64,000 bases of DNA from Eledone cirrhosa (Eukaryota). Position 1 is the stretch's first letter. Every line of letters begins with the position of its first letter. Both the position numbers and the translations under genes were made by a program. Location of the stretch: assembly GCA_964016885.1 (NCBI GenBank), contig OZ024754.1, positions 32,488,001 through 32,552,000 on the forward strand, written 5' to 3'. Under the pieces are notes generated by a model, which was not told where the DNA came from, did no database searches, and worked only from the letters and a program-made list of their open reading frames with translations. Positions 49,416-54,670 of this stretch are shown here, one piece after another.

Positions 49416-49637
49416 CTCGAGGGCGGCTGACGGGGCTAGAAGCTGCTAAATGTTCGGCCGCCCTCATGTCTCTGATTTTCAGCCCCATGGATTTTGTCTA
49501 TTATATTCCTTTGTAAAATTTCGAATACCTGATGATGTCACCGGATTCATACTGAACCCAGTCACTGAAATGATCATAGTATAATAAACCTTTTAATGAA
49601 GAAGTACACCAGTCCAGCCTCCTGTTATTTTATAATA
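49416..49637 (+). mobile_element. Family C hammerhead-carrying short element in (TA)n
   Basis: Homologous to 54468-54670; both end in ccagtccagcctcctgttattttataat. Confidence 0.82.
49525..49582 (+). ncRNA. Minimal type-I hammerhead ribozyme, family C
   Basis: atac CUGAUGA(49529) stem II GAAA(49567) ugauca UA gtat; palindromic stem III. Confidence 0.85.
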
Positions 49638-49688
49638 TATATATATATATATATATATATATATATATATATATATATATATATATAT

Positions 49689-50114
49689 GTAAATATCTTT
49701 AAGTCGTTTGGAAGCCTCGACAATGCAAATGGGTAAATGTCCGGGTAACAAGATCCGGTGGTGGAGAGAGAGATGTAAGTGGGTGTACGTTGAGATGCGT
49801 GGTGTGTAAAGATGTGTAAATGTGTAGAAGAAAGAAGGGAAGAGTATAAAGGATAAAATAAAAATAACAACACAAGAGAGAGTTACCTTGGGAGGGACTA
49901 TTAAATCTCTCCCAAGGTAACTCTCTCTTGTGTTGTTATTTTTATTTTATCCTTTATACTCTTCCCTTCTTTCTTCTACACATTTACACATCTTTACACA
50001 CCACGCATCTCAACGTACACCCACTTACATCTCTCTCTCCACCACCGGATCTTGTTACCCGGAGATTTACCCATTTGCATTGTCGAGGCTTCCAAACGAC
50101 TTAAAGATATTTAC
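49689..50114. repeat. Near-perfect inverted repeat with ~206-bp arms and ~14-nt spacer
   Basis: Mirror ORFs 49625-49873 (-) and 49930-50172 (+) are nearly identical; one mismatch seen. Confidence 0.93.
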
Positions 50115-50169
50115 TTATTATTCCACAATGCTTCAAGCAAACTTCAATACTCTCTTATATATATATATA

Positions 50170-50365
50170 TAACGAAGGAAATGTGGCAAGGAACCAGATG
50201 GACCATAACGCACCAAAGTACTCGATACTTAGGGTAGTAGAGTTGGTAATAGAAATAAGTAGGACTCTGACGGCTGAGCTCAAGCCGTTTCGACGGCTAT
50301 TTCTGAGTCCAGAATTAGCCGTCGAAACGGCTTGAGCTCAGCCGTCGTGGTCCTACTTGTTCCTA
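50170..50365 (-). mobile_element. Family A fold-back element, reverse orientation
   Basis: Palindrome ~50249-50365 plus a tail homologous to 11853-11934. Confidence 0.85.
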
Positions 50366-50593
50366 TATATATATATATATATATATATATATATATATAT
50401 ATATATATATATATATATATATATATATATATATATATATATTATAAAATAACAGGAGGCTGTTATATATATATATATATATATATATATATATATTATA
50501 AAATAACAGGAGGCTATATATATATATGTATATATATATATTAAAATAACAGATTAAAGTTTAAGCAAAGAATCGCTGCTTTCACCCATAACT

Positions 50594-50646
50594 AAGTTTC
50601 AGAAGATCCCATTAAGGGTGAAAGCAGCGATTCTTTGCTTAAACTT
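50594..50646 (+). ncRNA. Hammerhead-like motif with variant core CAGAAGA (family D)
   Basis: aagttt CAGAAGA tccc-attaa-gggt GAAA gca...tgc UU aaactt; all three stems pair; second copy on minus at 51653-51703. Confidence 0.6.
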
Positions 50647-51017
50647 TAATCTGTTATTTTAATAAATATTTGCTCTACGGTTCTTATATATTTGATATAT
50701 ATTTATCCTTATCGAGCCCTCTTTGGATTTTATTCTTCAAATTTATTATTATTACTATATATATATATATATATATATATATATATATATATATATATAT
50801 ATATATATATATATATATATATATATATATATATATATAATATATATATATATATATATATATTGTTATACTTTGGGAGGGTCATGTTGCCAATAAGAAA
50901 CACACGCACCAGTTGCTTTCACTTCAATTTATTATATATTTATAAATTTACAAATTTATAAATTTATAAATTTCTGGTTGGTTGGTTGGTTCCACAACCA
51001 GATAGTTGTATATATAT

Positions 51018-51062
51018 AGTCATAGTCCTTTCGTCACACACTCTGTGACCTCTTCAGTGACT
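51018..51062 (-). ncRNA. Type-I hammerhead motif, family B, mirror copy
   Basis: Reverse complement of 51180-51224. Confidence 0.75.
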
Positions 51063-51179
51063 GGGGATTCCTTTCTTTGTCTCCTACGCCATTTTGTTTC
51101 TGTGTGTGTCACACACACAGAAACAAAATGGCGTAGGACAGAACAAAGGAGAGGCACGGAGACAAAGAAAGGAATCCCC

Positions 51180-51224
51180 AGTCACTGAAGAGGTCACAGA
51201 GTGTGTGACGAAAGGACTATGACT
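51180..51224 (+). ncRNA. Type-I hammerhead motif, family B
   Basis: agtca CUGAAGA g gtcaca-gagtg-tgtgac GAAA ggac UA tgact. Confidence 0.78.
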
Positions 51225-51652
51225 ATATATAAACAACTATCTGGTTGTGGAACCAACCAACCAACCAGAAATTTATAAATTTATAAATTTGTAAATTTAT
51301 AAATATATAATAAATTGAAGTGAAAGCAACTGGTGCGTGTGTTTCTTATTGGCAACATGACCCTCCCAAAGTATAACAATATTGGTTTCAACACACGATT
51401 TCAGATAAAGAATCTTGCTAAACAAATTCAGAAACGAAATATATATATATATATATATATATATATATATATATATATATATATATATGTGTGTGTGTGT
51501 GTGTGTGTATGTATGTATGTATATATATATATATATATATATAGTAATAATAATAAAATTGAAGACTAAAATCCAAAGAGGGCTCGATAAGGAAAATATA
51601 TATCAAATATATAAGAACCGTAGAGCAAATATTTATTAAAATAACAGATTAA

Positions 51653-51703
51653 AGTTTAAGCAAAGAATCGCTGCTTTCACCCTTAACGGGATCTTCTGAA
51701 ACT
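51653..51703 (-). ncRNA. Hammerhead-like motif, family D, second copy
   Basis: agttt CAGAAGA tccc-gttaa-gggt GAAA gca...tgc UU aaact. Confidence 0.55.
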
Positions 51704-53456
51704 AACAAAGTCAATCTGTAAACGCAGAACTGGATATTTCAAAAAACGTTGCAACCGGAGGAAGACAGGAAGACGATACTTTGGTTCGTGGTAACGTTCG
51801 CTGGCAAAGAACGGGAAAAAACGAATAATACGCCCTCCCAAAGTATAACAATATCGGTTTCAACACACGATTTCAGATAAAGAATCTTGCTAAACAAATT
51901 CAGAAACGGAATAATACGTCATTAATAGGAGCGGTGAAAAACAATTACGCGCAAAGACAAAACCACGTTTATGGTATAAAAGAGGTCGTAGACTAATGTT
52001 CTCTTAGGTATATATTCAAGTATATATATATATATATACATGTATACATACATACATATATATATATATATATATATATATATATATATATATATATATA
52101 TATATATATATATATATATATATATATATGTATGTATGTATACATGTATATATATATATATATATACTCGAATATTTAACTTGTGGTACATATGCCTGAA
52201 AGCCTGATTATAATGTAAATATATAAAAGTGCTTGTTCCGAGTCTTGTATGTGTATATTAGCTTGTTTACACAAGTATGTGTGGCATGTGTGTTCATTCG
52301 TGTGCAAGTGTGCATGTGTATGTGGGTATGCTCATGTGTGTGTGTGTATGCTCATGTGTGTGTACATGTGTGTGATGTGTGTATGCATATGTGTGTATGC
52401 ACATGTCGGCACGTTAAAACAGCTGTTTGATTTAGGAAGAAGTGTATTTACACGGTGTGCTGTATATTTGCAAATCTATTCAACTACAAACATAAAGGGC
52501 GTTATGCGTGCATGCATACATACATACATACATACATACATACATACATACATACATATACATACATATATTCATACATGTATAAATTGCATACACACAT
52601 ACATACATTCATTCATTTATCCATACACACAATAAAGATATATATATATATATATATATATATATATATATATATATATATTATATATATATATATATAT
52701 ATATATATATATACGTATACAAACACACACAGATATATATACATGTATATATATATATATAGGAAACTTAACAAAGAGAAGACGAGACAACGAAAAAACA
52801 AATCAAAACGAAAAATAATGTTTGGAAGGGGAAAACTTAAAATGTTATCTTTTACAAATAAAAATACATACGAAAGACTGACAACTCTAGGGTCTTCAGC
52901 CGTTAAGATGGGCTTTGGCAATTTCGACCCCTTCCCAACGGTGCTGCTGGTCCACCCGGGGTCACACCGTCGGACACAAGACAAAGAGCTGTCCATGGAG
53001 TAAGAGACAAGACAAAACAATAATTTATAGCAATTAAGCCATGACAAGTAAACATAACATTTTATGTGACGTCAGGGTGAAGGTTTTATAGCACGAGCGT
53101 CTCCTGAAACAAAAAAAAAAAAAAAAAAAAAAAAGAAAAAAGGTAATAGGAAGGGAAATGGCAAGGAGAAGAAAGTAAGATTTAGTGTTAAATGTAAATT
53201 ATATTAGCCTTAACGTAATATGGGGTTTTAACAGTGTTTGACTCGGCTGGCTTTTGAAGAACGGGCACAACTCATTTTTTTTCAAGTAAACTAACTGGAT
53301 CAACGTGACATAATTCTTTTTTGTTCAAAGACAAAACTTGTTGCCGGGAATGGAACTCACGTGTATATAGATACGTAGATACATATATACACACATACAT
53401 AATACATACATACAAATACACACACACCCACACACACACATATATATATAAACAAT

Positions 53457-53915
53457 ATATGAAAAGATTCAGGACGGCTGAGTTCCGGTCGTTTCGACAG
53501 CTAGATCCGAACTAAGCTACCAGTATGTCGAAACGACCGGAGCTCAGCCATTGGGGTCCTGAATCTTTTCATATTACCCAATCTACTACCCCAAATATCG
53601 AGCACTCTGGTGCGTTATGGTCCACCTGGCATCTTACCACACCCTCTTTGTTATATATATATATATATGGGAGAGTGTTGAAGTTTGCTAGAAGCATTGT
53701 GGAATAATAAAATTGGTCGCTTTGGAAGCCGGATAACAGAATCAGGTGTTAATGAGAGAGAGAGAGAACGAGAGAGAGGAGAGAGAGAGAGAGAGAGAGA
53801 GAGAGAGAGAGAGAGAGAGAGAGAGAGAGAGAGAAAATGTAGAATGAGACGTAGAGGGTGTAGTGGAACGTAGGAAAAGTGTAAAAATAACACAAGATAG
53901 AGTTACCTTGGAAGT
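53457..53915 (+). mobile_element. Diverged family A fold-back element plus a downstream module homologous to 49689-50155
   Basis: Imperfect palindrome 53457-53574, tail to 53653, (TA)n, then gagagtgttgaagtttgc...gagttaccttgg. Confidence 0.78.
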
Positions 53916-54467
53916 GATTTAATTGTCCCTATATTTCGGATTTCGTATCCATCAACTGGGGATTTTCCGAAGGGAAAAAGCTTTTTGCCGGAGAGGGACA
54001 TATATATACATTTATATCAATTGACAACCAAAAGGTATGCGTTTCAACTTTAATATTAATACATAATAGTAAAGCCTCCCCAGGGCATTACTCCGGGGCT
54101 TAGATGACGCGAGTCCCAAACAAATACAAGAATCTTAGTCAAATCAGTAAACAAATTGAAGAGGGTTTGTATAGAAATAAACAAAAAAGTTGCTTATTTG
54201 TGCTAAATAGGCCGGGTTTTTTCCAGCAACAAGAAATGAGGTTTTTTTGAAAAGATTTTTGAAAAGGAAAAATGTTTTTTTTTTCCCGGAGAGACACATG
54301 CAAAGTAATTGATTAACTAGTCCTGGGCCTTTTTGGCAACAAGCGATTGGTAAGAAACCGGTATCATACCCAATTTATTCACCTCCTATATAGTATATAT
54401 AAAAAAATTAGGACCCCACGGCTGAGCTCTTGCCGTTTGCACACACACACACACACACAAGTATAGG

Positions 54468-54670
54468 GTAGAAGATGCTGAAGGTTCGGTCGCCCTCATG
54501 TCTCTGATTTTTCAGCCCCATGGTTGTTGTCTATTGTATTCCTATGTTATATTTCAAATACCTGATGATGTCACCGGATTCATACTGAACCCGGTCATTG
54601 AAATGATCATAGTATAATAAACCTTTCAAGGAAGAAGTACACCAGTCCAGCCTCCTGTTATTTTTATAAT
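54468..54670 (+). mobile_element. Family C element, second copy
   Basis: High similarity to 49436-49637. Confidence 0.82.
54558..54615 (+). ncRNA. Minimal type-I hammerhead ribozyme, family C
   Basis: atac CUGAUGA(54562) ...accgg-attca-tac-tgaa-cccggt... GAAA(54600) ugauca UA gtat. Confidence 0.85.

Follow-up and report, generated by a model that had tools for sequence, protein, structure and literature searches.

The question raised by this locus is why so many different hammerhead ribozymes lie within a few kilobases of each other, and whether the elements that carry them depend on them. The window is a stretch of 64,000 nucleotides (nt) from Eledone cirrhosa (contig OZ024754.1, positions 32,488,001 to 32,552,000, forward strand), and it sits in a 3.0-Gb animal genome that is rich in microsatellites. 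An earlier reading, made from the letters only and called here the sequence-only reading, described the cluster at 49416..54670 as short, non-autonomous, retrozyme-like derivatives of Penelope-like elements (PLEs) that insert into each other's TA tracts. It appears instead, with a probability of roughly 0.8, that the cluster consists of the 5'-truncated 3' ends of five PLE families (A, B, C, D, and F) piled up in (TA)n and carrying the type-I hammerheads of PLE pseudo-long terminal repeats (pLTRs), and that a change of core position 4 from U to A (U4A) likely cripples cleavage in families D and F but did not stop their spread. The cluster itself is ordinary, known PLE repeat debris. What is new here, as far as sequence can indicate, appears to be the A4 cores in two very successful coding lineages together with the genome-wide density of the motifs.

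The motifs themselves are real. Every hammerhead that the sequence-only reading listed was recovered at its place by a descriptor scan of the window, and its predicted cleavage sites (after 11353, 49578, 51219, and 54611) had been counted correctly. Its family list lacked a fifth family, F, and a hammerhead at 2389-2308 (-). The type-I core (CUGANGA, GAAA, and UH in a three-stem junction) is present in families B, C, and E and in the 2389-2308 motif. A hammerhead search had been proposed as the check on these motifs. When it was run, the canonical descriptor gave 40 matches in 400 kb of the genome and 0-1 in each of 10 order-2 resamples, and the canonical matches are therefore not due to chance. 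The 400 kb are 40 arbitrary 10-kb stretches (L191-L230) taken at round-number positions, which is not a random draw. A relaxed CAG..GA descriptor by itself did no better than chance (2 matches vs 0-1 in the resamples). For the D and F variants, the evidence is instead their copy numbers and context. An Rfam scan of the window gave no hammerhead among the matches listed (150 of 303), which were mostly microsatellite look-alikes of microRNAs. The hammerhead at 2389-2308 (-) is a canonical type-I motif with a 7-bp stem III, and it folds as a monomer in the predicted minimum structure.

The arrangement of the insertions was explored by fetching the best genome matches of each family, with at most 40 candidates scored per search, and comparing their flanks. 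All five families have two fixed 3' ends on (TA)n and variable 5' ends. Counted from the predicted cleavage site, the 3' ends lie at +20/+97 in A, +163/+219 in B, +56/+195 in C, and about +220/+261 in F; those of D lie at +29 and at a longer tailed end. The tails measure 41-139 nt. An inverted upstream copy is frequent, and this inverted arm, which is systematically tail-less, often stops at the inner 3' end. In B, it is present at 15 of 29 loci and stops there in 12 of the 15; in F, at 10 of 19 loci and in 9 of the 10; in A, at 25 of 29 loci and in 20 of the 25; and in D, at 12 of 30 loci and in 7 of the 12. Partial-tandem pLTRs, an inverted 5'-truncated partner, and a tail at one end are thus all found, as in PLEs. 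The arrangement of pLTR, inverted truncated copy, and tail has already been described for PLEs (PMC8557442), and two internal start sites of the reverse transcriptase (RT) have been demonstrated for the element PAc (PMC11167929). The two fixed 3' ends match both this PLE anatomy and the RT start sites of PAc.

This two-ended, inverted pattern indicates that the "mirror" motifs of family B (51018 and 51180), taken by the sequence-only reading for two copies, are the two arms of one insertion, and that A, D, and F likewise owe their hairpins to insertion. The half-motifs reported for family A do exist as GAAA/stem III halves near 50300 (-) and 53530 (+); the hairpins that hold them are products of truncation and inversion. 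The view that PLE pLTR type-I hammerheads lie within (TA)n and pile up near one another was borne out, and a short palindromic stem III was likewise found in C, E, and B-like families. In A and D, stem III is long enough to need no dimer. Family B is taken here to be Neptune-type and family F Poseidon-type, from their linker motifs and motif style and not from a tree. The features are as follows, with the strand after the coordinates (ORF, open reading frame).

49416..49631, +, 3' end of family C without tail; the parent unit is ORF-less and 1.7-2.1 kb long
49525-49582, +, C hammerhead with canonical CUGAUGA core, stem II closed by U.U, and palindrome AUGAUCAU; predicted site after 49578
49689..50157, +, family F1 (Poseidon-type PLE), with an inverted tail-less arm (49689-49894) and a tailed main arm (49895-50157); the core is missing and the arm begins 1 nt past the predicted site
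50171..50364, -, family A (Hydra-type PLE), with main arm 50312-50171 and inverted tail-less arm 50310-50364; it is cut within stem II, and the GAAA/stem III half alone remains
50440-50461 and 50494-50515, -, two inverted stubs, each of 22 nt, from the end of family C
50540..50755, +, family D (Hydra-type PLE) copy 1, a short inverted arm and then a tailed main arm
50595-50645, +, hammerhead of D copy 1 with U4A core CAGAAGA
50864..51438, +, family B (Neptune-type PLE), one insertion with an inverted tail-less arm and a tailed main arm
51062-51018, -, B motif of the inverted arm
51180-51224, +, B motif of the main arm, canonical with CUGAAGA-G; site predicted after 51219
51545..52005, -, family D copy 2, with hammerhead 51703-51653, U4A core, and extended stem I
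51833..51908, +, 76-nt piece of the family B end nested within D copy 2 and flanked by a 10-nt direct duplication (51823-51832 and 51909-51918)
53457..53658, +, diverged family A copy, about 78% identical to the 50171 copy, a truncation and inversion hairpin with its tail present
53671..54010, -, family F2 3' end with tail, absent from the earlier list
53962-53926, -, F2 variant hammerhead with core CAGUUGA-U, stem II GGAU/AUCC, and GAAA-UA-UA, in full CCC-CAGUUGA-U-GGAU-loop-AUCC-GAAA-UA-UA-GGG
54465..54670, +, family C copy 2 without tail, with hammerhead 54558-54615 and predicted site after 54611; both C motifs read CUGAUGA...GAAA-UGAUCA-UA
54688..54947, no strand given, inverted stub of a B-related end (54688-54860), then an A tail fragment (54863-54947)
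11293..11359, +, family E hammerhead with UGCGCA palindrome and canonical core; more copies occur in the arbitrary stretches
19215..19259, +, B-related hammerhead with CUGAGGA core

The tails of A and F (or F-like) elements abut across a short (TA)n at 50158-50170 and 53652-53670 in the window and at loci L072 and L073. These tail-to-tail meetings may reflect shared TA targeting. A and F as one element was ruled out, since the 19 other F loci listed, like most A loci, end on (TA)n and differ in their flanks.

The 5' ends of the copies can indicate which RNA served as template. Only 5 of 166 incidental arms have a 5' end within 3 nt of the predicted cleavage site (B 0/35, D 3/39, F 1/9, A 1/70, and C 0/13), although genomic 5'-end positions are no measure of ribozyme activity. 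Because of this, and because copies cross the predicted site, the template would have been uncleaved or re-ligated RNA. Truncation at the cleavage site, hinted at by the F1 copy in the window, is unsupported by the same count. The 5' ends pile up within stem II of A and D, and most incidental A arms end in stem II, as the A copies of the window do.

The crowding of the cluster could possibly reflect a host function, for example a selected role of the ribozymes in processing the surrounding transcript. There are 11 merged insertions in 5.5 kb, whereas the 40 arbitrary stretches hold 1.4 on average and at most 7 per 10 kb (Poisson P 7e-10). However, with a variance of 2.55 the insertion counts show overdispersion, they are correlated with TA runs (Spearman 0.45, p 0.003), and the cluster was picked after the fact. 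Thus, TA targeting is enough to explain the density. The motifs lie on both strands, several copies lack cores, and several are 97-100% like dispersed family members and therefore young. A host function is very improbable. The sequence-only reading had found the diversity and density of the cluster unusual. The local density is indeed high; the number of insertions follows TA runs, and the diversity extends across the genome. Twenty types of stem III, site, and stem I have at least 3 matches in 1.35 Mb of fetched DNA, which is enriched for families A-F, and diversity is therefore not special to this locus.

The arbitrary stretches contain about one canonical type-I hammerhead per 10 kb. These belong to many families, most with U11.1 closing stem II, and their palindromes include CUAG, GUAC, UAUAUA, and UAUGUA. 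Canonical matches number 14 in 160 kb on the four largest contigs and 26 in 240 kb elsewhere. Extrapolated from 40 canonical motifs in 400 kb, the genome would hold roughly 300,000 hammerheads. Published numbers for PLE hammerheads are about 2,000-9,000 per genome (PMC4209133), and up to 120,000 retrozyme copies are given for the much larger axolotl genome (PMC7229834).

The elements' ability to move themselves can be inferred from the proteins that their parents encode. Two B parents (L101 and L102) have the structure pLTR-ORF-pLTR with motifs 4,083 and 4,087 nt apart, and their ORF contains RT with YVDD, a CX4CxxC linker, and a GIY-YIG-type domain. The D parent (L126) is a unit of about 3.26 kb whose ORF has DKT, LRWRA, YRDDG, and CxCX5C. 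The Hydra clade is marked by DKT, an RWK-like motif, a CxCX5C linker, and (TA)n insertion (PMC8557442). Of these marks, D has SDKTG, LRWRA (R replaces K), the linker CNCRNRADC, and (TA)n insertion, and A has the linker CNCPDRSSC. The canonical hammerhead core in the pLTR that goes with this clade is absent from D (CAGAAGA) and from A (UUGANAA or CUGAGAA). A search with the C-terminal part of the D protein gave 10 of 150 scored matches in stop-free frames of 709-726 amino acids (aa; about 713 aa). Among the best 20 D ORF loci, the motif lies downstream in 18, and it reads CAGAAGA in all 18. The F parent (L130), one copy, is a unit of 3,240 nt whose RT and endonuclease lie in an ORF with a frameshift. 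Among family A loci, 12 of 20 with U3-A8 and 6 of 29 of A1 have a Hydra-type endonuclease or RT match on the upstream side of the core. RT and, at the C terminus, a GIY-YIG endonuclease in a single ORF, as in endonuclease-bearing (EN+) PLEs, are thus found for B, D, F, and A. The proteins were identified from motifs and from likeness to the Hydra proteins in the supplement of PMC8557442; Pfam gave a weak RVT_1 match for B and nothing for D or A.

Since RT/GIY-YIG ORFs lie upstream in A, B, D, and F, these families are no non-autonomous retrozymes, and the retrozyme-like character proposed earlier holds, in part, only for the ORF-less family C. That C should be non-autonomous and PLE-like follows from its motif-to-motif spacing of 1.7-2.1 kb, its short frames (longest at most 136 aa in five copies), and the near-absence of protein matches. 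A coding parent was not found, with one weak protein match in 25 upstream regions, and such a parent could exist. In 5 of 30 C body loci, there are matches to other families' proteins near the locus edges. The C hammerhead has a canonical core, a U.U closure of stem II, which is a known tolerated variant (PMC3088659), and an 8-nt palindrome, with a predicted dimer energy of -7.2 kcal/mol. A 31-nt exact C pattern has 1,057 matches genome-wide. The units at L311, L320, and L321 show an internal diverged duplication of about 160-200 nt and a short degenerate frame directly past the tail.

For the cluster as a whole, short non-autonomous derivatives that replicate through circles made by their ribozymes are improbable. 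Family C partly agrees with this, being ORF-less with a canonical core, a palindrome, and one tandem pair among 30 loci (L320/L321), and animal retrozymes have been proposed as descendants of PLE pLTRs (bioRxiv 10.64898/2026.07.22.740005). However, full-length coding copies already refute it for B, D, and F. The absence of coding capacity that goes with animal retrozymes was found only in C, and A, B, D, and F all enter PLE ORFs. The 5' ends vary from copy to copy, and a search of the window for short head-to-tail repeats carrying two motifs found none. Tandem units of about 150-1000 bp with a motif in each are seen neither in the window nor in C, whose unit was expected to be short and is far above the 51-972 bp of animal retrozymes (bioRxiv 10.64898/2026.07.22.740005).

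The PLE families differ in the state of their ribozyme cores. Copy counts are exact pattern matches on both strands, so that the two arms of one insertion count twice. Family B, with an extra base after A9 and G10.1-C11.1, has 14,879 matches. Full-length A has a swapped U3-A8 pair with N7 free (all four bases) and 5,154 matches; a younger A subfamily with a C3.A8 mismatch has 1,689. Family D reads CAGAAGA in 24,898 matches. U4 versions of D with intact stem I have 88 matches, compared to 50 for C4 and 68 for an A6U control. As the U4 count is like those of C4 and A6U, canonical U4 in D is mutation background. Family F reads CAGUUGA (U4A and A6U) in 2,965 matches vs 3 that are canonical, and these three are older relatives, 75-86% identical with the same stem II.

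A canonical sister family of D, suggested by 822 CTGAWGA matches, was ruled out. All 10 of those sampled are inversion junctions at an upstream near-palindrome. Of 12 sampled matches with intact stem I, seven are junction-edge copies and five share upstream letters; the subfamily of these five has 8,324 A4 vs 46 U4 matches, and the sister family is therefore rejected. In about 3% of D matches, the near-palindrome junctions happen to recreate a canonical CUGAAGA that lacks stem I (L231-L240). The contigs of runs X19, X23, and X24 have no alternative letter at the D core, and nothing was returned for X17; this has no bearing on RNA. A search for RNA runs that contain the stretch listed none.

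It is probable that the cores of D and F are crippled and that the ribozyme is optional, though this part is held with less assurance than the reading as a whole. All single and double mutants of the CUGA region are low in activity, the C-G swap excepted (PMC9901934), and ribozyme mutants of PAc inserted normally in vitro (PMC11167929); it is from these two results that the cores are taken as probably crippled and the ribozyme as optional. In the alternative, CAGAAGA and CAGUUGA would be active variants whose cleavage the elements still use, with A4 made tolerable in D by the extended stem I, in F by dimerisation, or by help from the PLE protein. This is unlikely, but it has points in its favor. 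A4 arose in two unrelated PLE clades, and all other D core positions and the stems of D and F are kept. F2 copies differ less in the core (8/330) than in the flanks (133/2190), which is weak, as the matches were picked by similarity and the flanks contain homopolymers. The PAc ribozyme cleaves only with protein (PMC11167929), and natural core variants with residual activity are known (PMC3088659). On the other side, the low-activity mutants come from a full pairwise scan (PMC9901934), F has two core changes, and the D hammerhead fold lies a predicted 2.8 kcal/mol above the minimum. The C3.A8 subfamily of A reached its high copy number with a mismatch, which suggests tolerance of damage and not new chemistry. 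There is also no enrichment of 5' ends at the predicted sites. It is doubtful that two unrelated PLE lineages independently gained a working A4 hammerhead, invisible to CUGANGA searches, in the densest ribozyme landscape found on record (order of 300,000).

Several observations weigh against crippled, dispensable ribozymes. Between F1 and F2, 29 of 35 aligned positions are kept in the motif vs 33 of 51 in the upstream flank, and D keeps G5, A6, G8, A9, GAAA, and all three stems across its subfamilies. This retention of the F motif and of the D core and stems suggests that some constraint remains. The mutagenesis of PMC9901934 was made on one type III construct and the motifs here are type I, and a U4C viroid variant was weak in vitro yet sufficient in vivo (PMC3088659). 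Because A keeps its U3-A8 pair and most other families are canonical, catalysis is probably selected in many lineages. As for the insertion model, the tail assignment of the arms is reversed in 4 of 12 D loci, and the twin-priming step comes from anatomy alone.

Under the preferred reading of piled-up PLE 3' ends, the endonuclease of the element would nick both strands of (TA)n, and reverse transcription would be primed internally at two sites on uncleaved or re-ligated RNA. The tailed and tail-less complementary DNAs would then be fused where short stretches are self-complementary; the 822 near-palindrome junctions in the D core, judged from those sampled, fit such joining. The RT may frequently halt in the hairpins of the ribozyme itself, leaving "half-motifs", and fresh insertions would bring further TA targets and hence clustering. 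Family C could be mobilised in trans by a PLE protein. The hammerhead would more plausibly be an optional passenger or structural element than a requirement, with lineages of damaged core amplifying as well as intact ones.

Much of this has counterparts in known systems. Family B fits the consensus of the minimal type-I hammerheads that PLE pLTRs carry (Cervera and de la Pena, 2014, PMC4209133), including the extra base after A9 and G10.1-C11.1. It shares their long stem II, short stem I, and near-palindromic stem III, and, like them, is found mainly as lone motifs within truncated copies. The U3-A8 core seen in family A was described there for Schistosoma. Unlike in that report, many families here have the U11.1 closure of stem II and canonical motifs occur about once per 10 kb; U4A cores are unmentioned in its accessible portions. 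With the Hydra-clade PLEs (Craig et al., 2021, PMC8557442), D, and A in its endonuclease, share a GIY-YIG-type endonuclease at the C terminus, the CxCX5C linker, DKT, an RW-basic motif, and (TA)n insertion, and the Hydra hammerheads in the supplement have the same U.U closure and UU site as D. However, those hammerheads are called canonical, whereas D has A4 in about 25,000 matches, and the D unit of about 3.26 kb compares to "generally <3 kb" in Hydra.

The Poseidon element PAc of Anolis (Frangieh et al., 2024, PMC11167929) also has a pair of 3' ends with a tail between them near the ORF start, targets rich in AT, extension of both target strands, and a ribozyme that is unneeded for insertion in vitro. 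Its ribozyme is canonical and protein-assisted, in contrast to the doubly changed F core, and the inverted arm here is systematically tail-less. Family C resembles the animal non-LTR retrozymes (Cervera and de la Pena, 2020, PMC7229834; Li et al., 2026 preprint) in being non-coding with a type-I motif per unit and possible tandems. It differs from them (PMC7229834) in its unit of about 2 kb and in having the tail and inversions of PLEs, and A, B, D, and F differ in being coding elements. PLE hammerheads, their dimers, U3-A8, tails, inversions, and (TA)n targeting are already published (PMC4209133, PMC8557442), as is a pLTR origin of retrozymes (bioRxiv 10.64898/2026.07.22.740005). Neither a natural U4A hammerhead nor counts this large were found among the papers that literature searches listed, though Lunse et al. 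(2017) or supplements outside the accessible portions may cover them. The accessible portions of PMC13282606 make no mention of hammerheads or ribozymes.

The genome thus offers matched natural variants in young, coding, high-copy families, with canonical B, U3-A8 and C3.A8 in A, U4A in D, and U4A with A6U in F. PLE hammerheads are weak in vitro and dispensable for insertion in the only reconstituted system; to our knowledge, they are absent from Naiads. The A4 cores make the need of PLEs for their ribozyme a testable matter. Should D and F prove unable to cleave, their tens of thousands of insertions would demonstrate that catalysis is dispensable in vivo. Should they cleave, the consensus for hammerheads would have to be broadened, and with it every census based on motifs.

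Other features are present in the window. At 39670-40683 (+), there is a 5'-truncated Neptune-type PLE with an RT thumb and a GIY-YIG-type domain, 64% identical to the family B protein; it is bordered on the left by an inverted B-related end and on the right by a fragment of a D tail. The segment 52760-53030 was considered as a permuted hammerhead and ruled out, as its chance CUGAAGA is not conserved and the core is absent in both relatives. It is a dispersed repeat of low copy among the fetched loci (two relatives, 75-79%). An open frame of 928 aa at 6738-9524 (+), with RVT_1 and zf-RVT, belongs to a non-LTR retrotransposon unrelated to the hammerhead cluster. A 26-nt unit forms an array of 165 copies with 92% matches at 13066-17329. 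A repeat of about 200 nt that resembles a short interspersed element occurs in tandem pairs at 19908-20305, 29070-29455, 37720-38108, 42407-42760, and 54995-55500, and is also inserted within family C units.

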